DNA of 64,000 bases from Escherichia coli (lineage in GTDB: Bacteria; Pseudomonadota; Gammaproteobacteria; Enterobacterales; Enterobacteriaceae): NCBI RefSeq assembly GCF_013315695.1, contig NZ_CP054353.1. One strand, 5' to 3'. The position numbers were made by a program, and so were the translations under genes. Below are positions 14,213 through 31,214 of the stretch, piece after piece (the stretch's first letter is position 1; the number at the start of each line of letters is the position of its first letter). The notes below the pieces were generated by a model that searched no databases, was not told the DNA's origin, and saw only the letters and a list, made by a program, of their open reading frames with translations.

Positions 14213-14953
14213 ATGTCAGTTATTGGTCGCATTCACTCCTTTGAATCCTGTGGAACCGTAGACGGCCCGGGTATTCGCTTTATCACCTTTTTCCAGGGCT
14301 GCCTGATGCGCTGCCTGTATTGTCATAACCGCGACACCTGGGATACGCATGGCGGTAAAGAAGTTACCGTTGAAGATTTGATGAAGGAAGTGGTGACCTA
14401 TCGCCACTTTATGAACGCTTCCGGCGGCGGCGTTACCGCATCCGGCGGTGAGGCAATCCTACAAGCTGAGTTTGTTCGTGACTGGTTCCGCGCCTGCAAA
14501 AAAGAAGGCATTCATACCTGTCTGGACACCAACGGTTTTGTTCGTCGTTACGATCCGGTGATTGATGAACTGCTGGAAGTAACCGACCTGGTAATGCTCG
14601 ATCTCAAACAGATGAACGACGAGATCCACCAAAATCTGGTTGGAGTTTCAAACCACCGCACGCTGGAGTTCGCCAAATATCTGGCGAACAAAAATGTGAA
14701 GGTGTGGATCCGCTACGTTGTTGTGCCAGGCTGGTCTGACGATGACGATTCAGCGCATCGCCTCGGTGAATTTACCCGTGATATGGGCAACGTTGAGAAA
14801 ATCGAGCTTCTCCCCTACCACGAACTGGGCAAACACAAATGGGTGGCGATGGGCGAAGAGTACAAGCTCGACGGTGTAAAACCACCGAAAAAAGAGACGA
14901 TGGAGCGAGTAAAAGGCATTCTTGAACAATATGGTCATAAAGTGATGTTTTAG
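14213..14953 (+). CDS. pflA: pyruvate formate-lyase activating enzyme (radical SAM)
   Basis: 246 aa from [20 protein letters not shown] with the CxxxCxxC cluster motif [10 protein letters not shown]. Confidence 0.95.
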
Positions 14954-15023
14954 AACATCATTGCAGGTTGAATGTCGACCTGTAATTTTGGCTCCTTCCC
15001 CCTTCTTTTAGTTAGAATAAATA

Positions 15024-15055
15024 AATCAGCGTTGAGTGTATGCTCGACGCTGATT
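15024..15055. terminator. inverted repeat between convergent pflA and BcsC-like gene
   Basis: AATCAGCGTTGAG / CTCGACGCTGATT arms with one mismatch; T-rich run follows on the minus strand. Confidence 0.5.
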
Positions 15056-15099
15056 TATTGAGCTTAATTTTCGTACTGTAACTTTCCGATGCTACGTTA

Positions 15100-18000
15100 C
15101 TACCCGTCGGCGTAAGGTATCAGCGGCTGTGGCGGTAAATCCATATCGCCCTGCCATCCGGCGGCGGAATACCGTACATAGAGCTGGAAGTGACTTGGCG
15201 CATAATCCTTCGCTTTCTGGATATCAATCGCCGTACCAACAAACCAGTTGGACGTGACGCGACGTTCAAGTAATGCCCGTGCCGTGTAACCAAAACCCTG
15301 ACTGCTGCTACCACTGTTGGATTGTTGTGCTGCTTCTTCCTGCCAGTCGCTCGGGATCAGGTTCATCAGCGGATAACGCGGCATGGTTTTGGTCCGTGAG
15401 TGCGACCATGAACCTGAAGCCCCCAGCTCCCACGACCAGTTTTCCGTCCGCTCGCGCCACATCACCGGCACCGCAAACGACAGGTATTCCTGCGGGCTGT
15501 AGTAACCGCCCTGACCCAGTGAGTACTCACTCAGGTCTTTGTCGTAATGCCAGATCATGTTGTTCAGGCCAATGGTAACGCGGCGGTTATTCTCGTTGAT
15601 AATTTTATAGTAATAGCCCGTCATCCAGCGCACGCGCCAGTTATCTTCGACATTTTTACCGGTTAACTGATCACCGCTAAGCGATGCCCAGACGCCGTTT
15701 GCTTCACCTTTATCGTAACTCAGACTTAGCCCCACGCCGTCGGCACGCACGCCGCCCCATTTTTTCCCGGTGTTGCCCGGAGAATCTTTCTGCCCGCCGA
15801 AGGCCAGCATTGAGCTGGAGACAGGCCGACGATGTGCGTCAACGGTATAGCCGAGTGGGCCGATACTGTCGCTGTAACTGACAGCGCCGACCACATCCAC
15901 CACGTTGAATCCCATCGGTGTGGTGCCAATATCCCAGCTCCAGGTGTCGTTGCGCCAGCCAACCGCCACGCTTGTGCCGGAGTCTGACTGACTGCGGTTG
16001 CCGCTACACTCCTGCAGCGTACAGGTTCCCCAGTTATCATCCCATTTGCCATCGGCATTAGTGGAGAAACTGCCGACGTTCATATTGACGAAATCACTGC
16101 GAAAGAACATCCGACCGTCAGAATACGGCGCATCCACCTGCAACATGGTGGTATGTGCTTTCAGGTCAGAATAGCCGCCAGTGCCGTTTGATCCCCAGTA
16201 GTCGTGCTCCAGGGTGACATTGAGATCCTGCTGACGATAAAGATCTGCCGCATCGCTGCGCACGCCACGTTTCAGCCAGTCATCCTGCTCATCATTACGG
16301 GTAAGGCGGGTAAAGGTGTCGTTATCCTGCGGACGTGTCGTCGTCACGCCGGAAGCGATCATCGCATCTTTGTAGGTTTCCAGCGCCTGTTGCGGTTCAC
16401 CCGCCTGCGCCTCAAATTTTGCGCCATCGCGCAGTACCATCGCGCTTTCCATCGACGGCGGCTGAGATTTTGCCTGCAGGATCAGCCTGTTAAATGTCTG
16501 CTGTGCCGCTGCGGTATCGCCAAGCTGTGCCTGCACCAACGCCACGCGCCGCTGAGTGTTCAGCGAGGCGTTATCGGTGGCGGGAAGTTTCGCCAGTTGA
16601 CTGCGCGCCGCGGCTTTGTCGCCTGCGGCAATATCCACTTCCGTCAGGCCAAGAATGGCATCGGCGTTATTCGACTCCCGCGCCAGCACATTCTGATACG
16701 CCGTGCGGGCGGCGGTGTAATCGCGTCGCTGTTGTGCCCAGTCAGCCAGCGTAAGATCAATGCGCGTGGAAGGCGGTTGCTGGCGTAGCATCGCCTCCGC
16801 ATCCTGTTCTTTGCCACTGTCACGCAGGCGATTAGCCGTTTCCAGAATCTGATCGCTTTGCAGGCGATTCACCAGTTCCTGAATGTTGCCGTTCCACCGG
16901 GCGCGCGGCAGATTGTTAATATGCGCCAGCGCCGCCCGCTCCTGATCGTGACCGGAGAGATACAGTCCGTAAGCGTAAACCTGGTCCGGGTCGTTCGGCT
17001 TCTGTTGCGCCAGGTTACGCATTAACGTATCAGCCTGGGTACGTTGTCCGGCCTGCCAGAGATCCTGCGAAAGCCGGTAAGTTACCCACACACTGCCGGG
17101 GTCCAGCGCCAGTCGTTGCCGCTGAAGTGCTGCCGCCTGCGCCCATTTACCCTGATTTTCCAGCGCCTCCGCCTGCTGCGATAAGCGATCGTTTTGCAGA
17201 CTGCGTTCGATATCATCAATACTGCGCCGCTGGCTGGCAGAAAGTGACGCAATAAACGCTTCAGCTTTTTCCGGCGATTGCTGCCGATAAATGTTCGCCA
17301 GTCCACGCACGGCGTTAGTGTTGCCGCTGTCCATACGCAGGGTCTGCTGATAATAACGTTCGGCGGCGGGGTAATCTTTTCGCGCCATTGCCACATCACC
17401 CAGCCCCAGCACCGCATAGCTGTCGGTGTTATCGACATTGCGTGCCTGCAGGAACAGGCGTTCCGCCTGATCAGGATTGTTCGCTTTCAGTGCGGCATCG
17501 CCCTGTTGGATCGCCAGCCAATAACGGTTCACTTTCAGCAAACTGTTCCATTTGTCGTTGTTGCTGCTGTGCGGGCCCAGCGCGAGGGCTTTTTCCAGAT
17601 TTGCCACCGCATTCGCGCGATCGCCTTTCTGTGAATAAGCCTGGCCCAGCGCCCCCAATATTGCACCAGAGTTTGGGTTATCAATATTAAGTTTTTTCAA
17701 CTGACTAATTGCCTCGTTGCGACGAGATGCAATTTGCGCCACTGCACTCCAGTATTCCAACGCCATGCCGACATCTGACGGTACTCCGTTAAATAGCTTG
17801 TCATAACTGACAATAGCCTCCTCGTATCGCCCGGAGATAGCTTGTAAACGCGCCATTTGCAATGCCTGGCGCCCCTCAAGCGAAGAAAGTCGCATGACCG
17901 TACGCGATGCTTTATATATTTTTGAATCTGGGGCGATCAGAGAAAGTCTGGCAAGTTGTTTGTGTGCTCCGTCAATATCCCCCTTGCGAAGCAGATAGCG

Positions 18001-18219
18001 AAACCGAGCCGCAACGACATCAGGATTATTGGGCTCCACCAATTCAAGGCGATAAAGCGACTGCTCCACCAGTTCTTCACGGTGAGAGTCTTCTCCCAAT
18101 CGAATCTGTGCCATCAGCAGTTGATAAGCAGTTGGCGTGGCTTTTGCCATCGACATTACCGCCAAACCAAGAGATATGGTGAGTAAATTTAGGGTGAATT
18201 TGTGCATACCTGGACTCAA
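15100..18219 (-). CDS. BcsC-like TPR-repeat / outer-membrane export subunit of a cellulose-synthase-like system
   Basis: 1039-aa ORF with signal peptide, long TPR region and C-terminal beta-barrel-like tail ending PLIPYADG; last gene of the minus-strand operon; GC-rich (about 55-60 percent). Confidence 0.8.
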   Translation of the reverse strand: MSPGMHKFTLNLLTISLGLAVMSMAKATPTAYQLLMAQIRLGEDSHREELVEQSLYRLELVEPNNPDVVAARFRYLLRKGDIDGAHKQLARLSLIAPDSKIYKASRTVMRLSSLEGRQALQMARLQAISGRYEEAIVSYDKLFNGVPSDVGMALEYWSAVAQIASRRNEAISQLKKLNIDNPNSGAILGALGQAYSQKGDRANAVANLEKALALGPHSSNNDKWNSLLKVNRYWLAIQQGDAALKANNPDQAERLFLQARNVDNTDSYAVLGLGDVAMARKDYPAAERYYQQTLRMDSGNTNAVRGLANIYRQQSPEKAEAFIASLSASQRRSIDDIERSLQNDRLSQQAEALENQGKWAQAAALQRQRLALDPGSVWVTYRLSQDLWQAGQRTQADTLMRNLAQQKPNDPDQVYAYGLYLSGHDQERAALAHINNLPRARWNGNIQELVNRLQSDQILETANRLRDSGKEQDAEAMLRQQPPSTRIDLTLADWAQQRRDYTAARTAYQNVLARESNNADAILGLTEVDIAAGDKAAARSQLAKLPATDNASLNTQRRVALVQAQLGDTAAAQQTFNRLILQAKSQPPSMESAMVLRDGAKFEAQAGEPQQALETYKDAMIASGVTTTRPQDNDTFTRLTRNDEQDDWLKRGVRSDAADLYRQQDLNVTLEHDYWGSNGTGGYSDLKAHTTMLQVDAPYSDGRMFFRSDFVNMNVGSFSTNADGKWDDNWGTCTLQECSGNRSQSDSGTSVAVGWRNDTWSWDIGTTPMGFNVVDVVGAVSYSDSIGPLGYTVDAHRRPVSSSMLAFGGQKDSPGNTGKKWGGVRADGVGLSLSYDKGEANGVWASLSGDQLTGKNVEDNWRVRWMTGYYYKIINENNRRVTIGLNNMIWHYDKDLSEYSLGQGGYYSPQEYLSFAVPVMWRERTENWSWELGASGSWSHSRTKTMPRYPLMNLIPSDWQEEAAQQSNSGSSSQGFGYTARALLERRVTSNWFVGTAIDIQKAKDYAPSHFQLYVRYSAAGWQGDMDLPPQPLIPYADG

Positions 18220-19968
18220 TCAGGTGTTAACTCACTTTTTATTAAAAAATGAATAAGCGCAGTTCCCTGCCCTGCCTGTTTAAGGCCAGAGCAGAGAGCT
18301 ACAAAGATGAATTACTGTTGATGAGGATTCAGACGACGATGGCTAATGATGCGTAGCAGACGCCAGACGACCCACGCCAGAAGCACCACACTCAGCATTG
18401 CCATTCCTGCCAGCAAAACAGGATGTTTCGCTAACATATATTGCGCGCGCTCAATCCAGGGAAGATGCCCCACATAATAGGTATCTCCAACCCGTAAACT
18501 ATCGACACCTGATTCACGAATAACCGCAACTGAGCCAAATATATTGCCACGTTTTGCACTATTAATTAGCGCATTATTAAGTAACTCGTCACCACGTGCC
18601 CCCTCGGTCATTAATGCAATTACGCTACGTTGGGGATGATATGGAGACTGGAAACCAACCACCGCGGCCATTGGCGATGGAGAGATCATGCTTGTTTGTG
18701 TTTCAGTTTTTTGGTTGTTTTCATCTGTCATAATTTGTGCGTTATCAGAGTGCCGCATTGGCGTTTTTACCCAACTAGCGGTTGCATCAATGAGCAGATT
18801 AATTTGCTGCTGACCTGCAAATTCTTGCGGAATTGCCCCTATCAGCAGGATGTCTGCATCCTTATTCTGGATGGAGCTTATATCATCAGTAACTGTCAGA
18901 TTAATTGCCGGAAATCCGGTTTGAGCACCAATCAATCCAAGGGTATTTAGCAATATTTCAACCTGCGTTGTACCAGGATGTTCAGGCATAACGATGACTG
19001 TTTCAGATAAATCGGCCATACGGCTAAAAGGAAAGCCTGAACTAGCAAAGGCGCGTAAATCTGGCATGGCGATAAAGTGATGATACTTTGAAAAATCGAT
19101 AGTAGAATCATCAGCAATAACTGCATGGTTATTCAGAGGCCGGGAAATAATACAACTCCCGTCATCAGTACTCGGTATCGTATTAACGTACTCAAAATTG
19201 AATCGTAATTGATTAAGTGCCCCCAATGTCAGCGCCGGAATGGTAATTTTATTATTGCTATCTGACAATTCTTGCAATAACGGTAAATGTAATAGCAGTC
19301 GATCAGTAGTCGAGCGCGGGCTTGGGCGAAAAGATTCAATGTACTGATTATTAAGATTAACATCAATACGAGAACCGCCTACCATTGGCGTGGTATAGCG
19401 ATAGTTAATCTTCATATCAACCCCACTATTACGTAACAGAAAGAGATCAGGCGGCAAATTGAATGAAACATTAATTGCTGCGATCTGCAGGGCACTTGCC
19501 TGTAACTGTCCTTCATAGTTTTTAAGCTCTGCGAAAGTTACAGGACGATCAGTGCGAACCCAGTTTGGCGCATCATAAGGTTTGCGTGGCAGCAGTGGTT
19601 TCACGTCATTTACAACCACACTATCGCCGCGAAACAGTATATTTCCCTGAGCGAGACCTTTTGCTGCCTGTAATAAATCTTTGTCATCGCGGCCCCAAAT
19701 TACCAACAATTTGACGAAAGGATTTTGTGGATGGTTAATCATCTTAATAACAGGTGCATTCACCAACGGATGATCACGCAAAAAGTCTGGCCGTCTATTG
19801 TTAGTGGCAAAGACTATAGCATTGCTTTCCGGTAACTGATTATAAAAAACTGGAAATTGATGACCACGCCACCCCGATTGCGAACCAAACCACGAAGCGA
19901 CAATTGCAGATGCTTGCTGCAAACCAGCCTCCGGTGGGCCAGCAAAAACCATCGGCAATGTATTAGTA

Positions 19969-19977
19969 CGGTTATCT
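19969..19977. repeat. IS1 target-site duplication, left copy (CGGTTATCT)
   Basis: Identical 9 bp at 20746-20754. Confidence 0.9.
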
Positions 19978-20032
19978 GGTGATGCTGCCAACTTACTGAT
20001 TTAGTGTATGATGGTGTTTTTGAGGTGCTCCA

Positions 20033-20308
20033 GTGGCTTCTGTTTCTATCAGCTGTCCCTCCTGTTCAGCTACTGACGGGGTGGTGCGTAACGGCAAAAG
20101 CACCGCCGGACATCAGCGCTATCTCTGCTCTCACTGCCGTAAAACATGGCAACTGCAGTTCACTTACACCGCTTCTCAACCCGGTACGCACCAGAAAATC
20201 ATTGATATGGCCATGAATGGCGTTGGATGCCGGGCAACAGCCCGCATTATGGGCGTTGGCCTCAACACGATTTTACGTCACTTAAAAAACTCAGGCCGCA
20301 GTCGGTAA
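20033..20308 (+). CDS. insA: IS1 InsA
   Basis: 91-aa [33 protein letters not shown]. Confidence 0.9.
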
Positions 20309-20730
20309 CCTCGCGCATACAGCCGGGCAGTGACGTCATCGTCTGCGCGGAAATGGACGAACAGTGGGGCTATGTCGGGGCTAAATCGCGCCAGCGCTGG
20401 CTGTTTTACGCGTATGACAGGCTCCGGAAGACGGTTGTTGCGCACGTATTCGGTGAACGCACTATGGCGACGCTGGGGCGTCTTATGAGCCTGCTGTCAC
20501 CCTTTGACGTGGTGATATGGATGACGGATGGCTGGCCGCTGTATGAATCCCGCCTGAAGGGAAAGCTGCACGTAATCAGCAAGCGATATACGCAGCGAAT
20601 TGAGCGGCATAACCTGAATCTGAGGCAGCACCTGGCACGGCTGGGACGGAAGTCGCTGTCGTTCTCAAAATCGGTGGAGCTGCATGACAAAGTCATCGGG
20701 CATTATCTGAACATAAAACACTATCAATAA
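20227..20730 (+). CDS. insB: IS1 InsB frame (expressed as InsAB' by programmed -1 frameshift)
   Basis: Overlapping -1 frame ORF downstream of insA, typical IS1 arrangement. Confidence 0.85.
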
Positions 20731-20745
20731 GTTGGAGTCATTACC

Positions 20746-20754
20746 CGGTTATCT
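20746..20754. repeat. IS1 target-site duplication, right copy (CGGTTATCT)
   Basis: Matches 19969-19977. Confidence 0.9.
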
Positions 20755-21455
20755 CGCGGATCAAAGAATGGCACAGGAAAATATGAAAGATCATTTTGCA
20801 GATTGAGTTTCTGGACGACCAGACCAAGTTCACTGTTACGTCCAATATCAAGCCACAAGTTATTGCTGGTTGAGATTTCACAGCTATTCTGATAATGGCC
20901 AATTAATTCAAAACGCAAACGATTAAAATCCGAGAAATACAATGGGTTAAGCGTTATTTCCGCCAACGTTTTTTTTCCCAGTTGTTCTTTGGTAATCGGT
21001 AATACTCCCATCAACTCATCATTAAGATAAACTTTAAGCTGCGACTGAACGGGGATCAATGACGGTGACGGAGTATATTCAAGCTTTAGTTTTGCATCTG
21101 AAACTATCTCATCACTGCGCATACCAAATTCAATATACCCCAGTGGGTTGACACCATTCAAAACGATGTTACCAGGCGCTGGTGATATTTGTGTAAATGG
21201 AAGTTTAAAATGATAAGAGGAATCTTTCGCATAAACAGAGACGTTAGACTTCTCTATAGCGGGTAATACTATCCCGGAGGGAGACTTATGGATTATGGTA
21301 TCTAAAGCTGATGCAGCATTTGCCTGGTATAACCATAAAAACCCTAAGCAAATTATTGCAGTAATAAATTTTAAATATTTTCTTTCCATTTTAAAAATTT
21401 CAAGAGACATAATCAACACAAATAATATATTTAGTTGGTTAAATATAATCTAAAA

Positions 21456-23570
21456 CTAATTCTCACGACTATTTTTTAGTGTCCGCAGAATATAAAAAAT
21501 CATATTGTAATACCCTTTAAGAGAGATGATACATACGTCAAAAAAGCTCTTTAGTATATTATCTTGCTTAATTTTATCATTCCACTCTTGCCATAATGAA
21601 TCACGTGAAAATGTTACTCTGACATAATTAATATTCTGTTCATAAGTCATTGGCAAAATCTTCAGACCAATTTTATTTTTGTAAGCATGAACAACTTTTA
21701 CAGGAATATCACATTCCCCTTTATTATCACTCAGATAAAGAGACAAATGCTGAGTTTTTTCGATTTCTTTTACATCGGAGATGTGATCAACAATAACCCC
21801 CAGGCCACCTTCGGAGAAATCAATAACAGAACAGGGATAGCACCGTCCATCTGCTAGTTTTATCACACCTTTAAAAGAAACATCTATCCGAGGAGAAAAG
21901 CGGACCTGCTTTTGTTCAATAGAGACTGCCAGGGTTGCGCCAATAATAATTGTATTATAAATCAACCAAATCAAACAAAATAAATTTAATATAACAAGAT
22001 GACCTTGCAATCTATAAATATTAATAACACCTATTATTAGTCCAATTAAATTTAAAATAGCAAAAATAAGATAAGGATATGAGATTCGCCAGTCAACAAA
22101 TTTATTTTTTATTAACCCGCCCTTGGCAGTAACGTTAAATCGCCCTTTAGCTGGCGCAAGTAAGGCAACAAGCGTTGGTAGTGTAATATACCAGGCCAGA
22201 ACCATTTCATAAATTTCATTCCAAAATGAATGTCTGTATTCACCCTGAACTCTTGAGTTAGTAAAAATAATCACAAATAGATAAGGTAGAACATAAGACA
22301 TAATATCTGCAACCGACGCATCTATCAAATTAACTGAAAAGAAAATAGGACATAGTGGCGCGAATAAAAAAATCAGCCGTGGAACCCCTGATAAAAAATG
22401 CATCATGCTACTGAGATAGCAAAGACGCTGTGATAACGTCAGCCCTTTGCCCAATAATGGATTATCAATACGTAAGATTTGGATCATGCCCCTGGCCCAC
22501 CGTATTCGTTGTCCGATATGAGCAGACAATGTTTCGGTAGCAAGTCCAGCGGCCAGAGGATAGCGAAGATATGCGGAGCTGTACCCTGCACGATGCAAGC
22601 GTAGCGATGTATGCGCATCTTCCGTTACCGTTTCAACTGCAATGCCTCCAACCTCATCTAATGCAGACCTACGGATAACCGCGCATGAACCACAAAAAAA
22701 TGAAGCATTCCATGTATCGGTGCCATTCTGGATTAAACCATAAAAAAGATGTCCTTCATTTGGTTTCTGCCGAAATTGCCCCAAGTTTCGCTCAAAAGGA
22801 TCGGGAGAGAAAAAATGATGTGGTGTTTGCAGCATCGATAGTTTTTTATCGGCAATAAACCAGCCCATCGTTTTTTTTAAAAAAGAAACGGAAGGAATAT
22901 GATCACAATCGAAAATAGCAACAAATTCGCCGTTAGCTATTTTAAGCGCATTGTTTATATTTCCAGCTTTCGCATGTTCATGCGTTTCTCTTGCAACATA
23001 GCAAATACCTGACTCATCAGCAAATTTCCTGAATTCGTCTCTGGCACCATCATCAAGAAGCCAGACATGTAATTTATCTTTTGGCCAGTCTAAAGCCAGC
23101 GCTCCATAAACTGTATTCTTCACGACAGTAAAGGGTTCATTATATGTAGGTATGAATATATCGACATCAGGCCATTCTTCTTTATTATCTGGTAAAGGTA
23201 TGCTTTCCCTGTTCAATGGGAAACAGACCTGAAAATAACCAAGTAATAAAACAAACCATGCATACGTTTCAGCAGCTAACAGCGTCAATGAAAAGAAGCT
23301 GTCAGGAAACTCATCAAGAATAACTGAAGAAGAGTAACGCCACCATAGATACCTTGTGGATATAAGTATACCAATACCCATTAAGATCAGGGTAATCATC
23401 CTTCCCCTGAGCAAATTGAGGAGAAAAACAGAGATACAAATGATAATCGAGAATAGTGTTTGTTGATAAAAACCGAGCGGCTGTTCAACAATTGACAAAA
23501 AAACAAAACATAGCAATATAGCAACAAAAAGAAAAATTTTGTTGTATATTTCTTTATTTTTTAAATTCAT
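21456..23570 (-). CDS. BcsA-like processive family-2 glycosyltransferase with C-terminal PilZ domain
   Basis: 704-aa multi-pass membrane ORF with FDCDH and QRIRWARG (QxxRW) motifs and PilZ signatures RFSPR / DFSEGGLG; AT-rich (about 25-35 percent GC). Confidence 0.85.
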   Translation of the reverse strand: MNLKNKEIYNKIFLFVAILLCFVFLSIVEQPLGFYQQTLFSIIICISVFLLNLLRGRMITLILMGIGILISTRYLWWRYSSSVILDEFPDSFFSLTLLAAETYAWFVLLLGYFQVCFPLNRESIPLPDNKEEWPDVDIFIPTYNEPFTVVKNTVYGALALDWPKDKLHVWLLDDGARDEFRKFADESGICYVARETHEHAKAGNINNALKIANGEFVAIFDCDHIPSVSFLKKTMGWFIADKKLSMLQTPHHFFSPDPFERNLGQFRQKPNEGHLFYGLIQNGTDTWNASFFCGSCAVIRRSALDEVGGIAVETVTEDAHTSLRLHRAGYSSAYLRYPLAAGLATETLSAHIGQRIRWARGMIQILRIDNPLLGKGLTLSQRLCYLSSMMHFLSGVPRLIFLFAPLCPIFFSVNLIDASVADIMSYVLPYLFVIIFTNSRVQGEYRHSFWNEIYEMVLAWYITLPTLVALLAPAKGRFNVTAKGGLIKNKFVDWRISYPYLIFAILNLIGLIIGVINIYRLQGHLVILNLFCLIWLIYNTIIIGATLAVSIEQKQVRFSPRIDVSFKGVIKLADGRCYPCSVIDFSEGGLGVIVDHISDVKEIEKTQHLSLYLSDNKGECDIPVKVVHAYKNKIGLKILPMTYEQNINYVRVTFSRDSLWQEWNDKIKQDNILKSFFDVCIISLKGYYNMIFYILRTLKNSREN

Positions 23571-23643
23571 GGTACGTAACTATTCATTAATACTATGATT
23601 TGACTTTAAAAAAACGAATGAATGATGTCATAAAAATAAAATT

Positions 23644-24984
23644 TTAACACCAGGTTACCTGTGCTCTTCCATTTTGCTTACTTTTGTATAATCGTTCATC
23701 TGCCAGTAATTTCAACCGTTCAATGTTATTCATGCACTCGTCAGTATTGGCAACACCAATACTGCAACTACAATTCAATCCACCTATTGAGAAATGGACT
23801 ATTCTGTGCAAAATTCTTGATAATTGATTTATATCTTTATCATGATAAATAATAGCGAACTCATCGCCACCAAATCGATAAACTTCACCTTTGCTGAGGG
23901 GTAATTCATCCTTAATAAGATTAACAAGTCTTATTAGTACTTCATCACCAAATAAATGACCAAACTTGTCATTAATGGTTTTAAACTTATCTACATCAAA
24001 CAGGCATAAATATCCAAAATCCTTACTCAGCATCCTGATATTTTTATCAAAAACACGACACCCAGAAGCTCGCGTCAATGCATCGTAAGTCCCGGAATCA
24101 TATATTTCTCTAATTGCATCAATCTCTTCAACGTTAAAGAATAGATTTTTTCCATGCAAATTATAATGATTATTCGATAATATAGATTCTTTTTCTGACT
24201 TACCCTTATTTATGATTTTTTGCATTAATTTAATGTAATGAAAATATATTAACCCCGCAGAAATCGCCGATGTGAAAACAAAAAACAAGCACATATAAAT
24301 ATACTTATCTTTTTTATAGGCAACAATAAACATTACTTCCGGGATATAAGAATAAGCAAGAGTGATCGCTGATTTCTCAAATACAGCATCATTAATCAAA
24401 AAATCATCACCCGCGATTTTCTTTTCATTATCATTGATATCATAAAATGAGACATATATATTTTCCCGTTCACCTGACTGATTTCTTATCAAAGCCAAAT
24501 AACGTTCAGGATCTACCACTGATATCAAACTTGTTCGTTTCGAAATAGGATGAGCATAATAAATATAATATTTATTATTTAAACTAATAATCCCTCTTTC
24601 AAAGATGTTACTTATACGGATAGAAGAAACTATGCCGTCACAAAAGTTATCCCCTTCCGTTGTAACTTTGGCGCATTTACCATCGCTAATGATATAGGGA
24701 CCTAGATCATAAATATATTCTGGTTTTTGAAAGTCAGCAAAACTATTGCGTATCCTTTTTAACAACTCTTCCGGAGAAATATCTAACCCATAAAATACAT
24801 TATTAAATACTAAGCGCCGATACTCAGACACATTAGCTATAGCAAGCCCACTATCTATGATCGATACCTTTACCGAATTGACTCGATCTTTAACGTAAAT
24901 AGTATACAGATAACATGTCATTACAGAGACACATAAAAAATACAAAAAACAGATCCCTGCTGCCTTTTTTTTATACTTAAACAT
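23644..24984 (-). CDS. membrane-anchored diguanylate cyclase (GGDEF)
   Basis: 446-aa ORF with two TM segments flanking a periplasmic domain and an intact RFGGDEF active site. Confidence 0.85.
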   Translation of the reverse strand: MFKYKKKAAGICFLYFLCVSVMTCYLYTIYVKDRVNSVKVSIIDSGLAIANVSEYRRLVFNNVFYGLDISPEELLKRIRNSFADFQKPEYIYDLGPYIISDGKCAKVTTEGDNFCDGIVSSIRISNIFERGIISLNNKYYIYYAHPISKRTSLISVVDPERYLALIRNQSGERENIYVSFYDINDNEKKIAGDDFLINDAVFEKSAITLAYSYIPEVMFIVAYKKDKYIYMCLFFVFTSAISAGLIYFHYIKLMQKIINKGKSEKESILSNNHYNLHGKNLFFNVEEIDAIREIYDSGTYDALTRASGCRVFDKNIRMLSKDFGYLCLFDVDKFKTINDKFGHLFGDEVLIRLVNLIKDELPLSKGEVYRFGGDEFAIIYHDKDINQLSRILHRIVHFSIGGLNCSCSIGVANTDECMNNIERLKLLADERLYKSKQNGRAQVTWC

Positions 24985-24988
24985 TGTG

Positions 24989-27337
24989 TTATTTTCTTTT
25001 TTTCGGTTTACTGTCTATATGCCACTCTGAAAACGGTAATGGTTTCTGGTATAAATATCCCTGAACATGGGAGAAGCCTAATTTTTGTAATTCTCTGGCC
25101 TGTCTTTCTGTTTCAACACCTTCAGCGATCACTGGCATATTTTCTTCTCGTGCAAGACTAGATATAAAACACACAACCCTGTTAGTTTCATCGAAAATAC
25201 CAGAAGTAAATTCTGAATCAATTTTGATGCTATCAGGTCTAACTTTGTATAATTTTTTCAAGTCAGCTAACCCACTGCCAAAATCATCAAGGGAAATTTT
25301 AATGCCATTTCTTCTTAAAAATTTTATATTATTATAAAAACTATCATTTATATCTTTCATTGCTGACTCGGTGATCTCCAGACAGATTTGTTCCGTATTT
25401 ACGCCAAATTTATTAATTAAATTCAAAACGCGGGTATGGAAATCAAATTCATTTAACTGCCAAGGTGAAACATTGATATGCAGAAGAAATTCTTTCGTAA
25501 TTTCATACTCACGACTAAATGAACCAAATTCACCAATAGCCGTTTCAAGAACAAAATCACCCAGTTCTTTAATTAAGCCAATTTCTTCAGCAACAGGCAC
25601 GAAAACTGATGGTGGTATTGCACCATTTTCAACGGACAACCAGCGGCATAACGCTTCGGCGCCAACAACATTATTACTATCCATATCAACAATCGGTTGA
25701 TATACTAAATAAAACTCACTACTCACAATTGCTTTTTTTATATTTCCAGCAACCCAAACCTTTTGATCAAGTTCATGAGCCTTAATATCATCATAAAATA
25801 TAAATTCAGATTCTTTATTTTCTCGCATAGCTGTTAATGCCAGTTTCAGTTTACCTTCATAAATCGACAAACTTTCCCCTGAAAAAGTTTCACAAATAGC
25901 AACCTTATGAACATAAATATTTCTTATGCAAAAAATATGCTCAGGAAAGTTTAAAACAGATAATCGTTCTATGAACTCTTCACAATGAGTGTGACACAGC
26001 AACAAATATGTTTCAGTAGAAATTTTTATAATATCACAATATTTAGAATACTTTGCTGATATCTTTGATTTTATATCATTAATGATCTCATAAAATTTCT
26101 GACTGCCATGTATAGCCTCTACAAACTCTAATCCATAGATACAAAGCATACCAACTGCTGAATAGGTTTTATTATTAGTTTCAATGACAGATTTGTTGAT
26201 ATAGAAACAACTTCCTTGTTCATAGGAAACAAGATTAAGTAACCGTTCCATCCGCTCTTTGTATTTGTCACTAATGTTATTAATGATTTTTTTGAGCTCA
26301 ATAATCTCACTACTGTCATTTTGCACGATTTCGATTTTATCATTTCGGTATACTGAGCTCGCTAATTTTTTCAGATGCTCAATTAGTTTACCAGAGTCGT
26401 TTCTAACCTTTTTTGTTATCTTTTCAAAAAGGTACCATAATAAACAGAAACAAACCAAACCACATACAAACATCAGTGTAAAATATTTATTTATGTTTGT
26501 GTCTTCTGCTTTTTGATAATGAAAATAATGAAATTTGACATCAGGAAGCCTGGGGAGTGAAATAATATCGTCCGTATAATTACCGTTATTATTACTTATG
26601 TTATAACGTCCAGATGCATCTCTAACAATAAGATGTAACATTGATTGTTCATTACCTACCATAATCCTTTTATTCTGTTCCATAAATAAAATATCTGCAT
26701 TTCCTCCTAATTTGTCCAGGAAATTGCTAAAATATCTTTCATCAAGATCTAAATGAATTAACTTCAGAGCAAATGAATCTTTTTCTGCTTCGGCTGGTCG
26801 TAATGAAAACGAAAAACATTTTTTCCCGGCAATGCCATAGCAGTTATACCATGGTGACCATTTTGAATAAGTCCCTGTTGGTAATTTATTCCAGGGACGG
26901 GATTCAGGATCAAAGTAGTTATCGTTAATTTCACCATCAGGGCTAGTAAAAGCATGACCTGGCTCTGATTGCCCCAAAAATTTAACATCACCATTATCAG
27001 TTCGAATAAAGCTAAGATACTTTCCATTATTTAGCATTATTCCGACTAAATTAACAGAATCTATCTTTTTCATCCGATGAAGAACTGCGCGTTTTATTTC
27101 ATTTTCATCGTGTAACAGATAAATGGCATCTTTTAAAGCATCCGCCTCTTTTTCAACTTTAGAAAAAAAGTTATTCAAATTATTATTGATAAGTATAAGA
27201 TTAATGCGTGAAGAGTTTTCTGCTATTTTTTTATAAAAATCAATGGCTGTAATAAATGATAAAATAATATAGACAGTGACAGCGAATATAAGCGCAGTGT
27301 TAAATCTTGAGTTTAATTTTTCTGTGATGCTATACAT
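24989..27337 (-). CDS. membrane-anchored c-di-GMP phosphodiesterase (EAL)
   Basis: 782-aa ORF with two TM segments and periplasmic domain; EAL signatures GAEALCRW, LDDFGSG, AEGVE; first gene of the operon, stop 4 bp before the GGDEF start. Confidence 0.85.
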   Translation of the reverse strand: MYSITEKLNSRFNTALIFAVTVYIILSFITAIDFYKKIAENSSRINLILINNNLNNFFSKVEKEADALKDAIYLLHDENEIKRAVLHRMKKIDSVNLVGIMLNNGKYLSFIRTDNGDVKFLGQSEPGHAFTSPDGEINDNYFDPESRPWNKLPTGTYSKWSPWYNCYGIAGKKCFSFSLRPAEAEKDSFALKLIHLDLDERYFSNFLDKLGGNADILFMEQNKRIMVGNEQSMLHLIVRDASGRYNISNNNGNYTDDIISLPRLPDVKFHYFHYQKAEDTNINKYFTLMFVCGLVCFCLLWYLFEKITKKVRNDSGKLIEHLKKLASSVYRNDKIEIVQNDSSEIIELKKIINNISDKYKERMERLLNLVSYEQGSCFYINKSVIETNNKTYSAVGMLCIYGLEFVEAIHGSQKFYEIINDIKSKISAKYSKYCDIIKISTETYLLLCHTHCEEFIERLSVLNFPEHIFCIRNIYVHKVAICETFSGESLSIYEGKLKLALTAMRENKESEFIFYDDIKAHELDQKVWVAGNIKKAIVSSEFYLVYQPIVDMDSNNVVGAEALCRWLSVENGAIPPSVFVPVAEEIGLIKELGDFVLETAIGEFGSFSREYEITKEFLLHINVSPWQLNEFDFHTRVLNLINKFGVNTEQICLEITESAMKDINDSFYNNIKFLRRNGIKISLDDFGSGLADLKKLYKVRPDSIKIDSEFTSGIFDETNRVVCFISSLAREENMPVIAEGVETERQARELQKLGFSHVQGYLYQKPLPFSEWHIDSKPKKRK

Positions 27338-28436
27338 ACTGGTGTTCTGACTAAAATGTTATCAATAATTTCGATATTACATTATATAAAGTTCGGTATA
27401 TGAAATGGTATTAATACTCCTCTTTATGATTTTCTGAATTAAATGATCTCCATTCTGTAAATATATCATAATGAGAAGATTGATTTTCTCTTAATTTACC
27501 AAAGTTATTATCATGCTTATTACTTTAACCAGAATGACATTATCATATATAGCGTTTATACTTTTGCATCTTCCACCCACGCTACCGCCTTTCGTTAATT
27601 TATCAACGAAATAATTTAGATATGAAAAAATCAATATATGACGCCTAAGCTATCACATTATGCATAGTTGCGACATTCACCTCTTTAATTATCCCAAAGA
27701 GGTATTAATGTGAATTCTCTATCATCCATTTTGCTGATTTATCTTTTTTCAGTCATGAGCAATCCGACTCTCTTAGCCAAAATAAATTAATAACCTTAAA
27801 ATGAGGTTTAATCAGAAAGTAGTAGCCACAGCTTGACTATTAAGACTATAAATTAGCCATAACGATGGACAGATAAATATGTTAATGAATACATGTTCAA
27901 TAAAACAATAAGGCACAACGCCAGGCCACCATTTTATTTTAAAAATAAAAGGCTGTGAACTATGCCAGGTATAATCTGATTCTATCGAGAGAGAATTTTT
28001 GTAAGTTACAAATACTGCAAAAGACACATTACACAAAATTTTTAACCACACAAACACCTTGTGTTCTGTATAACAGAACAATAGCTGTGGTCATTTTCAG
28101 CAAGTTTAACTAAAATTATCAAGAATTTTTTTTGATGTATATCAAAAACAATAGTCTTCGCGCATCCGTTACTGCTTAACATTTACCCACAAAGTTCATA
28201 TTTTCACCACACATAATCGTTCACTTCAGAACTTAAAATAATAACTTGCAAAATAACCAATAATTAAAACTATCACTGCATCTAAAAATAAAGATTAAGA
28301 TAACTAAAATTCGTATTATCACGGCATCGTTTATCGCCACCCGTCTCTTAAGAAAAATTTAACTTTGCTATTATCAGTCCTCTCCGAATTTCTCTTCTAT
28401 TTACTGCGATAACCCCGGCGAACCGGGGCATGATGA
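27338..28436 (-). promoter_or_regulatory. 1.1-kb AT-rich noncoding leader/promoter region upstream of the EAL-GGDEF-bcsA-like operon
   Basis: No convincing ORF; strongly AT-rich; sits at the 5' end of a minus-strand operon. Confidence 0.4.
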
Positions 28437-29856
28437 CTATTTCTTATTCGCTTTACGCGCAAGTAACGGGAATATCAGCCCCAGTCCAACCAGGACAAAT
28501 GGCGTCGCAATATTCAGCGCCAACTGAAAAGTCCACTCTGCGGTGAAGGCTTCCATTTTCGGGAAAATCCCTGTCAGGCAGGCAAAAGCGGTAAAGGTAA
28601 AACACCAGATCCCGACAGTCATCGCCAGCGGCCTGTTACGAATAAAGACATACTCTGGTTTATATTTCTGCGCCAGGCGAACGACTGCAATAAATGCAAC
28701 AAATACCCATAAATAACGCAGCGGCATCACTACCGAATTAAGGTTCAACAGCCATTTATAGAGATTGTTCATATCACCAATGCCGAGAGTCGGCAGCATA
28801 ATCAGAATCGCCACCAGTACCAGGGTCAGAAAATAGCCATTAACGGGCGTACCAGAAGCGTTGGTACGACATAAACTGGCTGGAATATATTTGCTATCAG
28901 CATCGCCTAATAGTACTTTAAGCGGCGCATCAATCGAGAATACCAGCGCAGCTACTTGTCCCAGGGTATTCGCAATGGCGTAAATCACCATTAAAGTATT
29001 ACCCATGTTGTAATACTCGCCCAGCTTCTGAAAGGCGTAATACTGACCGTTGGTCATTAAGTCATCCGGGATATTACGCGAATCAAACATCATCCCCATC
29101 GCCAGCGAGCCCAGAATGGCACAAACCGCAACCATCACCGCCAGGCATAACATCCCTTTTGGAAATTCTTTTCCTGGGTTGCGCGTTTGATTAACGTAAG
29201 GAGAAATCTTCTCTGCTCCGCCAACCGCGAAAACCAGCATTGAAATAGTGGTAATGTAGGTAAAGTCGATATGAGGAATGAACGTTTCCCAGGTAATGTT
29301 TGTGGTCGCAATATGCACTTCAGTAATTGCAGGCGCGGTTACCGCCATCGCCACATACAGGAGCGACATAACAAACATCGCAATCCCTGCCACAGAACCG
29401 ACGATTTTCAGCGATTTCATACCGCGTGAAGCAACCCACATAAAGAAGATAAACAGCACCAGCGTTAACCCCTGTAACGCTACGACTGAATATTCTTTGA
29501 TTAACGAACCGTCGCCTTTCATCGCCCAACCGAGCGCAATCAGTATTGCCTGGGGTTTTTGTGCCAGATAGGGAATATGCACTACCCAGTAGGTCCACGC
29601 GGCGAGGTAAGCCAGTCCGGGTCCCATCGTGTGTTTAATCCAGGTACTGACCCCGCCCTTCCCATCTTTGAAGGTCGAGCCTAACTGACCAACAATTAGC
29701 GCATAAGGTGTGAAATAGAGCGCAAAGATAAACACCCATGAAAAACCCCTGGTTGGCGTAGTTATTAACAACGTTGCCAAAACCCCAGACAGTGATAAAA
29801 GACATCAGCGCAATGTTGTACCATCGCAGCTGTTTTTCCTGAACATTCCCAGCCAT
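28437..29856 (-). pseudogene. ycaM: APC-family amino-acid transporter with a frameshift in a homopolymer tract
   Basis: N-terminal frame MAGNVQEKQLRWYNIALMSFITVWGFGNVVNNYANQGF (from 29856) and C-terminal 447-aa frame (28437-29780) overlap in different frames at the A5/C4 run at 29752-29760. Confidence 0.65.
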
Positions 29857-30065: not shown

Positions 30066-31214
30066 TTACACGTGAGCAACGGGTTTCGGCGTATGACCGG
30101 CGTTGCGAAGCAGCATCAGCAAATAGATAAACGATACGCTGGCGATCATGATAAACAATAAATTATCGGAGAAATTCTGCATTAGCATGGCAGTAAATGA
30201 CGGGCCAAGCAGACTTCCCACGGTATAGCTCAACAGTAAGGCCTGGTTCATCGCCACCAGTTGATGATGTTCAACTTTCTCGCAAGCCCATGCCATCGCC
30301 ACCGGATATAGCGTAAAGCCAGCGGCACCGAGGATGAATAACGCTGGGGCCATCGCCGCCTGGCTAAGCATCGCGATACTGCCGAGAATGACGACAAAGA
30401 CCTGAACACGCAACACCAGCAGTCGACCAAACTTATCCGCCAGACGTCCAATCGGCCATTGTCCAAGGATACCCGCACTGACCAGTACCGCCATCCAGAA
30501 ACCAATGCTGGCATTGCTCACCCCTTTGTGATTGAGGTACAGCGGCATCAGGCCATATAGAGATCCCAGAACGATTCCTGAGATAATGCAGCCATTCACG
30601 CCAAGCCGCGCCTGACGGAGTTTTAGCATTGACGTAATTGACGTCGCATCATGGTTTTCAGCCTGCTGATTCAGCACACGCGTAAACAACAGCGGTAAGA
30701 TCCCTGCCAACGTCAAACCTGTAACCCACGGCAATACGGACATCAGCTCGGTTGAAACTTTGCTGACCAGTAACTGGCCTAAAAACGTTCCCACGTAATA
30801 AACCATCATATACGCAGCAAGCAAACGCCCACGGTTACGTGACGTCCCACTGCACATCAGCGCGCTCTCAACAACCACCCAAATCATGGCACAGCCGACA
30901 CCGGCGACAAAACGCCAAGCCAACCAGCTCCAGAATCCAATCATCAGGCCAAGGCCGGCACAGCCAGCGGCAAAAATGAAGGAGGCCAGATAATAGCTGC
31001 GGTTAAAGCCAATGCGCTTAATGACATACCCTGTCAGCAATGTACCGACCAGGTTGCCGGTAAAATAGGATGAGCTGACAACGCCTACCTGCCATGTGGA
31101 CATGTGTTCCTGGGCGAGCCAAAGCGGCACGAGTGTATTTAACACTGCGATCGCCAGAGTCAACAAAAGCAGGCCAGACAGCAAAAGCATGACAGGCCGG
31201 GTATACGTGGACAT
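30066..31214 (-). CDS. ycaD: MFS transporter
   Basis: 382-aa 12-TM ORF; synteny. Confidence 0.85.

Follow-up and report, generated by a model that had tools for sequence, protein, structure and literature searches.

A retained non-coding leader with a conserved promoter-like site, a perfect FNR palindrome and a GC-rich 20-mer is a candidate control region of an accessory Escherichia cellulose operon

In the 64,000-nucleotide stretch of Escherichia coli DNA analysed here (contig NZ_CP054353.1; hereafter the window), a 1,099-bp interval at positions 27338–28436 precedes an accessory cellulose-synthase operon, which runs on the minus strand in the order EAL / GGDEF / bcsA / bcsB / bcsC and belongs to a genomic island. 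This interval, referred to as the leader, is non-coding, has been retained and contains discrete elements under purifying selection. The reading that we favour, at slightly better than even confidence and from sequence and conservation, is that the leader would be the island's own control region, consisting of a promoter followed by a long 5' untranslated region (UTR), with an oxygen input through FNR and probable coverage by H-NS. An earlier note on this DNA had taken the interval for either a silenced, H-NS-type promoter region or a long structured 5' UTR, and thereby for the control point of the system; that interpretation is partly supported here, although the note missed the three elements on which our reading rests, namely an FNR box, a pair of promoter-like hexamers and a GC-rich 20-mer. 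This sequence content is new for a recently described operon, while the architecture is already familiar; membership of the FNR regulon, of the H-NS regulon or of any RNA family cannot be claimed.

Distribution, non-coding status and constraint

Among 5,426 complete E. coli genomes, 9 carry the leader, each in a single copy. Six of them make up lineage A (five at least 99.7% identical to the window, and strain E7-1N7 at 98.9%) and three make up lineage B (73–74% identity). When the EAL gene served as query in a protein search, full-length relatives came from Escherichia alone (E. coli, E. marmotae and, at 68% identity, E. fergusonii); a scan of species-representative genomes yielded one additional E. 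coli, and in metagenomes the most conserved 19-mer matched nothing beyond lineages A, B and C apart from chance GC-rich sequences. Lineage C is E. fergusonii, where the cluster, devoid of bcsC, lies at another chromosomal site, between rutR and yedF, and is preceded by a gene-free gap of 1,085 bp with 31.5% GC. The conservation across carriers that the earlier note had proposed to examine is thus found in three lineages and two chromosomal contexts, with a leader length of 1,097–1,100 bp in lineages A and B and of 1,085 bp in lineage C. Note that a gene-free state is expected by chance at 31% GC, so that the length and its retention are the non-trivial part.

As the earlier note had it, the interval stands at the 5' end of the operon and holds no credible open reading frame (ORF). 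It fills precisely the space between the ycaM stop codon (28437–28439) and the CHASE9-EAL gene, whose ORF opens at the earliest start available once an upstream stop has been passed. No other intergenic gap in the 33-kb annotated neighbourhood comes close to it in size, and PGAP annotates nothing inside it in any of the carrier complete E. coli genomes (9/9). The longest ORF of the interval, 89 codons from a TTG start on the minus strand (27812..28081), is conserved at only 46% and shifts frame in lineage B; all others have at most 52 codons. Searches for a conserved protein-coding gene by three routes were negative: six-frame tblastn between lineages detected no protein-level conservation beyond DNA identity, Pfam searches with the ORFs and full frames of all three lineages gave nothing reproducible, and ORF comparison for a gene or small protein turned up a conserved start codon (GTG 27580) whose peptide is not conserved. 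A 51-codon plus-strand ORF (27958–28113) matches PilZN3 with E = 0.0056; at 17 bits against a cut-off of 27 bits, and absent in any frame of lineages B and C, this match was judged to be due to chance.

Constraint is apparent at two levels of divergence. Between lineages A and B, 26% of the leader sites differ (p-distance 0.26), with about 12 small indels that are mostly not multiples of 3; in the EAL and GGDEF genes, 38% of the 4-fold degenerate sites differ (pS 0.44–0.48), with no indels. The leader contains four invariant runs of at least 20 nt where 0.175 are expected, and the longest, 42 nt, exceeds the 99.9th percentile of a uniform-rate model (35 nt). In the comparison of A/B with C, 4-fold sites have reached saturation (p = 0.65) and the leaders, at 47–49% identity, are essentially unalignable, so that anything common to them can be read as a footprint. 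The promoter-like site, the FNR box and the 20-mer of element E4 described below are kept even against E. fergusonii. The interval therefore behaves as constrained, in line with the control role proposed for it in the earlier note.

If the leader were a neutral spacer, or what is left of a decayed gene (e.g. a regulator or a PilZ-type protein) with residual or chance motifs, this would account for the middle of the leader (28230–27990 and around 27840), where only 44–58% of positions are invariant between A and B, for the near absence of alignment with E. fergusonii and for the weak PilZN3 match. We nonetheless consider this explanation very unlikely: the PilZN3 match falls short of its cut-off and is not reproduced in B or C, tblastn in all frames gives no sign of protein-level conservation beyond that of the DNA, divergence is below that of 4-fold sites, the run statistics reject a uniform rate, and deletion bias should have eroded 1.1 kb of junk, yet its length is kept in three lineages. 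A mobile-element remnant or repeat does not fit either, the leader being single-copy in each carrier and without a match in plasmid or phage collections; a tRNA or repeat origin was likewise discarded, only short chance repeats being found inside.

A conserved promoter-like site and a predicted long 5' UTR

Promoter prediction, which the earlier note had suggested as a check, brought out a near-consensus sigma-70 promoter-like site that had been overlooked, TTCACA-N17-TAAAAT (Table 1). It is the top-scoring operon-strand promoter match in each lineage when the three are scanned independently. The letters of its hexamers are identical at 12/12 positions in 9 sequences, while the spacer, 17 nt long (16 in two lineage-B sequences), has diverged in sequence; near-consensus hexamers, a spacing of 16–18 nt and conservation amid divergence, the sequence hallmarks sought for a sigma-70 promoter, are thus present. 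A collinear match to these hexamers occurred in only 4/1000 shuffles of the E. fergusonii leader (p about 0.004).

Judging from sequence and conservation, transcription of EAL-GGDEF-bcsABC would most likely start from this site near 27924, giving a predicted 5' UTR of about 587 nt (585 nt in lineage B and 532 nt in lineage C). The interval would then comprise about 510 bp of regulatory DNA ahead of the start and, beyond it, a long 5' UTR, and the scan of the leader for promoters and terminators revealed no terminator-like site between the promoter-like site and the ATG.

Regarding the long structured 5' UTR of the earlier note, the length is likely, with a conserved promoter-like site about 590 nt upstream of the gene, but the structure did not withstand comparison: no folding signal below shuffles is common to A, B and C, and no covariation was detected. 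A permissive Rfam scan, which included the c-di-GMP-I/II riboswitch families, produced best matches with E = 0.13–9.5, far below gathering scores and irrelevant (CRISPR-DR62, snoRNAs). A leader of the CsrA type is not indicated either, with 6–7 GGA motifs against 5.6–7.2 in shuffles and none at the EAL translation-initiation region. Note that two 120-nt minus-strand windows fold well in lineage A only (27637–27756 and 28037–28156, z = −4.6 and −3.8) and not in B or C; one of them holds the hairpin CCTCTTT...AAAGAGG near 27690–27715.

A perfect FNR palindrome at a fixed distance from the promoter-like site

The second element kept in all lineages is a perfect FNR palindrome, TTGAT-N4-ATCAA, which has the sequence expected of an FNR site and is the sole perfect instance in the 64-kb window (0.15 expected). 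By comparison, the FNR sites of focA-pflB (10753) and dmsA (36299), located in the same window, have one mismatch each; both are experimentally established, and focA-pflB is listed as directly FNR-activated (PMC3688515). The half-site bases are invariant (10/10) in 9 sequences from the three lineages, while three of the four spacer bases vary. Furthermore, the centre of the box lies 207.5–210.5 bp upstream of the −10 hexamer in all 9 sequences, across a segment that is unalignable between A and C; the other inter-element distances differ by 18–37 bp between these two lineages.

If functional, the FNR box would supply an oxygen input. At about −215 it is too far away for class I or class II action on the conserved promoter, so that it would either drive a class II promoter of its own just downstream or counteract silencing by nucleoid proteins. 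In each lineage, TAnnnT hexamers, weak and to be expected by chance, are found at spacings that would place FNR at −39.5 to −45.5. As a separate observation, every lineage has a second, imperfect TTGAT-containing element 23–29 nt downstream of the box (window 28109–28122; locus L006 9276–9289), which reads TTGATAATTTTAGT in lineage A, TTGCTAATTATGGT in lineage B and TTGATTAAGATTAA in E. fergusonii.

Element E4, the best-conserved part of the leader

Element E4 is made of a short hairpin followed by a GC box (Table 1) and contains a Shine–Dalgarno-like (SD-like) AAGGCGG followed by the GTG at 27580. Its 20-mer, ACGAAAGGCGGTAGCGTGGG, is identical in A, B and C, whereas the longest exact match obtained in 300 shuffles was 15 nt, and it is unique to the island among the 5,426 E. 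coli genomes; the region upstream of core pdeI has no E4 equivalent. An 11-mer core, GGCGGTAGCGT, located at −215 to −252 from the EAL start in the chromosomal leaders, recurs on the same strand at −282 in the leader of the plasmid-borne bcs2 clusters, which also have the order EAL-GGDEF-bcsAB, and it constitutes the best local match between these otherwise dissimilar leaders; its chance rate is one unrelated exact match in about 300 kb of other sequence. The plasmid copies were sought in complete E. coli genomes, 58 of which hold at least 80% of the query. Their leader appears to be truncated by IS1 about 450 nt before the EAL gene (loci L025, 5251–5841, and L008, 8250–8841), so that the FNR/promoter part is not comparable there and only the 11-mer is common. 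In these plasmid clusters, an unannotated gap of about 820 bp separates the GGDEF gene from bcsA.

Lying about 305–350 nt into the predicted UTR, E4 may act as a cis element of the transcribed leader, the candidates being (i) a protein or small RNA (sRNA) target; (ii) the start of a short upstream ORF (uORF); (iii) a second, proximal promoter core. By-eye comparison of E4 and of two AT-rich distal blocks, E2 and E3, to the consensuses for Fur, CRP, ArcA, CsgD, RcsAB, NsrR, sigma-54, sigma-32 and sigma-28 gave nothing convincing or conserved in all lineages.

The third of these candidates could be extended to the point where E4 is the real operon promoter, with a −35 TTGATA (27606–27601), a 16-nt spacer, a −10 TAGCGT (27584–27579) and a GGG discriminator; the 5' UTR would then be about 235 nt long, and TTCACA/TAAAAT, the FNR box and E2/E3 would serve in upstream regulation or silencing, or as a second promoter. 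Consistent with this, the 20-mer is the best-conserved element of the leader, a TTGA stands at the same distance from GGCGGTAGCGT in A, in B and in the plasmid bcs2 leader (TTGAAC-N16-TAGCGT), and conservation with the latter ends exactly at the last T of TAGCGT. On the other hand, TAGCGT fits the −10 consensus at 3/6 positions only and was not reported by the promoter scan, the E. fergusonii element has no properly spaced TTGA as a result of a 3-nt deletion in the loop, and promoter spacers are not normally invariant over 20 nt. We therefore regard this arrangement as unlikely.

The remaining candidates were considered in the form of a hidden small product or a structured RNA, that is, a uORF starting at GTG 27580, with its SD-like AAGGCGG half-buried in the hairpin, or a riboswitch-like E4. 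On either strand of the leader, this GTG alone is kept as a start codon in A, B and C with both an SD-like sequence (at least 5/6) and an ORF of at least 10 codons, and the resulting lengths of 29, 20 (11 in strain N3) and 24 codons are greater than the roughly 10 expected at 31% GC by our estimate. Yet the peptides are not conserved beyond Met-Gly, and the GTG is a GTT in the plasmid bcs2 leader. As for an RNA structure, the 7-bp stem is invariant and the loop is 3 nt shorter in lineage C, but the stability of the hairpin does not exceed that of shuffles (z = −0.95 and −0.53), the invariance of the stem leaves no compensatory changes, Rfam has no match (c-di-GMP riboswitch families included) and no structure signal is common to the lineages. 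Altogether, this is the explanation of the leader to which we give the least credence. A broader proposal is that E4 (the hairpin and the GC-rich GGCGGUAGCGUGGG, with the SD-like sequence and GUG) might represent an undescribed cis-regulatory RNA element of the 5' UTRs of accessory Escherichia cellulose clusters, whose core GGCGGTAGCGT would be common to the chromosomal and plasmid bcs2 types and which would make expression of the PdeI/DgcI-like pair and of the synthase respond to a cellular signal via an RNA-binding factor, an sRNA or uORF translation; we put it forward as a speculative, rather improbable idea.

Base composition and the H-NS question

The leader has a GC content of 31.1% (0.25–0.35 in a sliding profile), as against 47–52% in ycaM, ycaD and pflB and about 51% in the flanking core genes. 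The term AT-rich used in the earlier note is thus accurate, but it does not set the leader apart, for the genes behind it are equally AT-rich (EAL 32.1%, GGDEF 32.2% and bcsA 36.9% GC): low GC is a trait of the 5' half of the island rather than of the leader alone. More generally, GC rises along the operon (15100–28436), from 31% in the leader to 32% in EAL and GGDEF, 37% in bcsA, 38–44% in bcsB and 55.5% in bcsC. This gradient, together with the E. fergusonii copy, which ends after bcsB, suggests a mosaic origin in which bcsC would have been added separately.

Contiguous with EAL, GGDEF and bcsA at 32–37% GC, the leader belongs to an extended AT-rich tract of more than 1 kb, as expected of an H-NS target, and H-NS coverage of the leader is plausible on compositional grounds. 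In E. coli, extended H-NS regions silence transcription and mask FNR sites genome-wide, and genes such as hlyE turn FNR-responsive upon H-NS removal (PMC3688515). The 31%-GC leader and the first 5 kb of the operon would be the type of DNA that is coated by H-NS, and basal silencing appears likely from composition and from these genomic data. The silenced promoter region of the earlier note is therefore compatible with the GC content, though the adjacent 5 kb of genes share this GC and the H-NS motif excess is limited.

The case could be carried further by considering the leader mainly as an H-NS nucleation and silencing platform, in which the FNR box and the promoter-like site would be masked or without relevance in vivo, with expression relying on anti-silencing. 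The contrast in GC with the flanking core genes, the 29 A-tracts (20.6 ± 3.7 in shuffles), the 7 matches, with at most 2 mismatches, to the TCGATAAATT-like H-NS nucleation motif (3.4 ± 2.0 in shuffles) and the masking of FNR sites in extended H-NS regions (PMC3688515) all go in this direction. However, a composition shared with EAL, GGDEF and bcsA leaves the retention of 1.1 kb of non-coding DNA unexplained, and silencing needs no exact FNR half-sites, hexamers or GC-rich 20-mer across saturated divergence. As the leading explanation this is, in our opinion, unlikely too; besides, it is compatible with an FNR-responsive promoter region and does not exclude it.

Several observations weigh against our reading of the leader as an FNR-responsive control region with H-NS coverage. 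First, only three independent lineages are available, which limits the power of footprinting, and the total of promoter-like sites is not above that of shuffles (7 vs 7.7), so that conservation alone singles out one site. Second, the FNR box, about 215 bp upstream of the predicted start, occupies neither a class I nor a class II position; the −10 candidates that it could serve directly are weak (TAGTTA/TAAACT, TATGGT, TAAGAT) in DNA where TAnnnT is common owing to its AT-richness, and their spacing from the box differs by 3 nt between A and B. Third, most predicted strong FNR sites within H-NS regions are silent in vivo (PMC3688515). Fourth, the nucleation motif matches are a weak signal at 1.8 standard deviations above shuffles, and the curvature prediction suggested in the earlier note did not single the leader out, the mean predicted bend of 22.1 degrees per 31 bp (from our own, unvalidated model implementation) being no different from that of EAL, GGDEF and bcsA (about 22), against 20.6 ± 1.8 in shuffles. 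Finally, the operon of this window is already broken, by IS1 in bcsB.

The island and the other conserved blocks

In the window, the operon is flanked by focA-pflB-pflA and, on the opposite side, by ycaM-ycaD-ycaC-dmsCBA. The sequence is homologous to K-12 up to 14949 and again from 28438 on, and K-12 has ycaK and ycaN between the pflA and ycaM stop codons; a 13.5-kb island (about 14950–28437) has thus replaced ycaN-ycaK, precisely between these two stop codons. At the junctions (14950 and 28437), we noticed neither an integrase or tRNA nor direct repeats. The accessory bcsB is interrupted by IS1 in this window and likewise in strain MSB1_4I, and independently by an IS3-family element in the lineage-B strain GF43 (locus L028, 30–1258), while it is intact in N3, 06-00048 and E7-1N7; these insertions in separate strains indicate that the accessory synthase is recurrently inactivated.

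On the core side, ycaM (28437–29856) is frameshifted in this strain and is a RefSeq pseudogene in MSB1_4I, whereas it is intact in the other carrier genomes examined. Its 3' part (28437–29636) shows a synonymous divergence (dS) of about 0.15 between island lineages, against 0.004–0.05 for ycaD (30066–31214), a pattern that fits co-transfer or hitch-hiking of the core DNA adjoining the island. From 36428 on, a P2-like prophage region (integrase, DNA adenine methylase and others) adjoins dmsA, where other carriers have serS directly.

Apart from the three elements discussed above, the leader contains several blocks that are invariant between A and B (Table 1). Of these, the AT-rich distal blocks E2 and E3 also persist in E. 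fergusonii, at about 70% identity. The GC-rich stem-loop next to ycaM probably shields the leader from transcription coming out of ycaM, or else stabilises the 3' end of that gene; the E. fergusonii leader opens instead with a canonical terminator hairpin after rutR, which suggests that in both chromosomal contexts the leader would be insulated from upstream transcription. In E5, strain E7-1N7 carries one substitution.

Table 1. Positions of the leader, its elements and the operon genes in the window (strand as noted; A, B and C denote the lineages)
Feature	Positions	Strand	Remarks
Whole non-coding leader	27338..28436	−	ycaM stop codon to CHASE9-EAL ATG; part of the 13.5-kb island
Stem-loop GCCCCGG-UUCG-CCGGGGC	28413..28429	−	GC-rich, no U-tract; 7 nt after ycaM stop codon; invariant in A and B; absent from K-12
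E2, distal block CCGTGATAATACGAATTTTAGTTATC	28299..28324	−	26-nt run invariant in A and B; 73% identity to aligned E. fergusonii
E3, distal block GTGATAGTTTTAATTATTGGTTATTTTGCAAGTTATTATTTT	28235..28276	−	42-nt run invariant in A and B; 69% identity to aligned E. fergusonii
FNR palindrome TTGAT-N4-ATCAA, TTGATGTATATCAA	28132..28145	.	Perfect; invariant half-sites in 3 lineages
Sigma-70 promoter-like site TTCACA-N17-TAAAAT	27931..27959 (−35 27959–27954, −10 27936–27931)	−	Top match, 10/12, in A, B and C
E4, hairpin and GC box	27574..27619	−	TTTCGTT (27611–27605)-N8-AACGAAA (27596–27590), then GC box GGCGGTAGCGTGGG (27589–27576)
E5, TCATAAAGAGGAG	27417..27429	−	SD-like, 80–92 nt upstream of ATG, no start codon after; invariant in A and B, absent in E. 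fergusonii
E6, ATAACATTTTAGTCAGAA	27345..27362	−	Just upstream of EAL start codon; initiation region without canonical SD; invariant in A and B
CHASE9-EAL phosphodiesterase gene	24989..27337	−	First gene of the operon; PdeI/YliE paralogue, 38.6% identity to core PdeI; Pfam CHASE9 2e-38, EAL 1e-64
GAPES2-GGDEF gene	23644–24984	−	
bcsA	21456–23570	−	With PilZ domain
bcsB	18312–21419	−	Split by IS1
IS1 in bcsB	19992–20730		

Significance

Accessory cellulose-synthase clusters with their own c-di-GMP enzymes have only recently been catalogued in Escherichia, and the present analysis turns an anonymous 1.1-kb gap in front of one of them into a region with a conserved promoter candidate, a consensus FNR box and a conserved 20-mer. 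Should the FNR input be real, the rare carrier strains would produce a second cellulose-like matrix specifically when oxygen is low, as it is in the gut, with relevance to colonisation and biofilm formation, and it would be explained why aerobic laboratory assays might miss this activity. Should E4 in addition be an RNA element, its combination with an FNR site that keeps a constant spacing of about 209 bp to the promoter would make the accessory cellulose oxygen-gated and post-transcriptionally tuned. The leader also offers a compact case of sites for host factors retained by horizontally acquired, H-NS-prone operons. The scope is limited by the rarity of the island (9/5,426 genomes) and by the resemblance of the architecture to known regulatory regions.

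Comparison with known systems

The operon itself has already been described. An accessory chromosomal bcsABC cluster with a YliE-like EAL and a YliF-like GGDEF protein, found in Escherichia only, was reported as 'bcs3' or the chromosomal 'bcs2' type by Hosseinpourlamardi et al. (bioRxiv 10.1101/2025.05.09.653004), and its gene set and distribution are those of the operon in the window. The upstream region, its promoter and the FNR site are unmentioned in that report, in which the word 'intergenic' occurs 0 times and 'promoter' is used only for pBAD and agfD/csgD, in a strain genotype and in the titles of references.

The closest core relatives are pdeI-dgcI (yliE-yliF) of K-12, a paralogous CHASE9-EAL / GAPES2-GGDEF pair in the same order (38.6% identity). 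Unlike the accessory operon, this pair is preceded by a gap of only 177 bp after gsiD, with 37% GC and with neither an FNR box nor an E4 box.

An unusually long untranslated leader in front of a matrix operon is reminiscent of pgaABCD, which has a CsrA-bound 5' UTR of 234 nt, and of csgD, whose leader and intergenic region are an sRNA hub. In those systems the leader is a post-transcriptional control point; in contrast, the leader studied here is two to three times longer, shows no GGA/CsrA enrichment and has no known sRNA target identified in it.

With the focA-pflB region, which has several promoters, the leader shares the organisation of a kilobase-scale control DNA with FNR sites serving a downstream operon. 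The pfl promoters, however, lie partly inside focA, in core DNA of normal GC, whereas the present leader is gene-free island DNA with a perfect FNR box.

A further parallel is the hlyE (clyA) promoter, which is silenced by H-NS and activated by FNR and CRP. Both regions combine AT-rich DNA with a site of the FNR family, and expression of the accessory operon would likewise be expected only with active FNR and relief from H-NS. The FNR/CRP site of hlyE is close to the start, in a class I position, while the FNR box of the leader would act from about 215 bp upstream of the best promoter candidate, at a distance of about 800 bp from the ATG.

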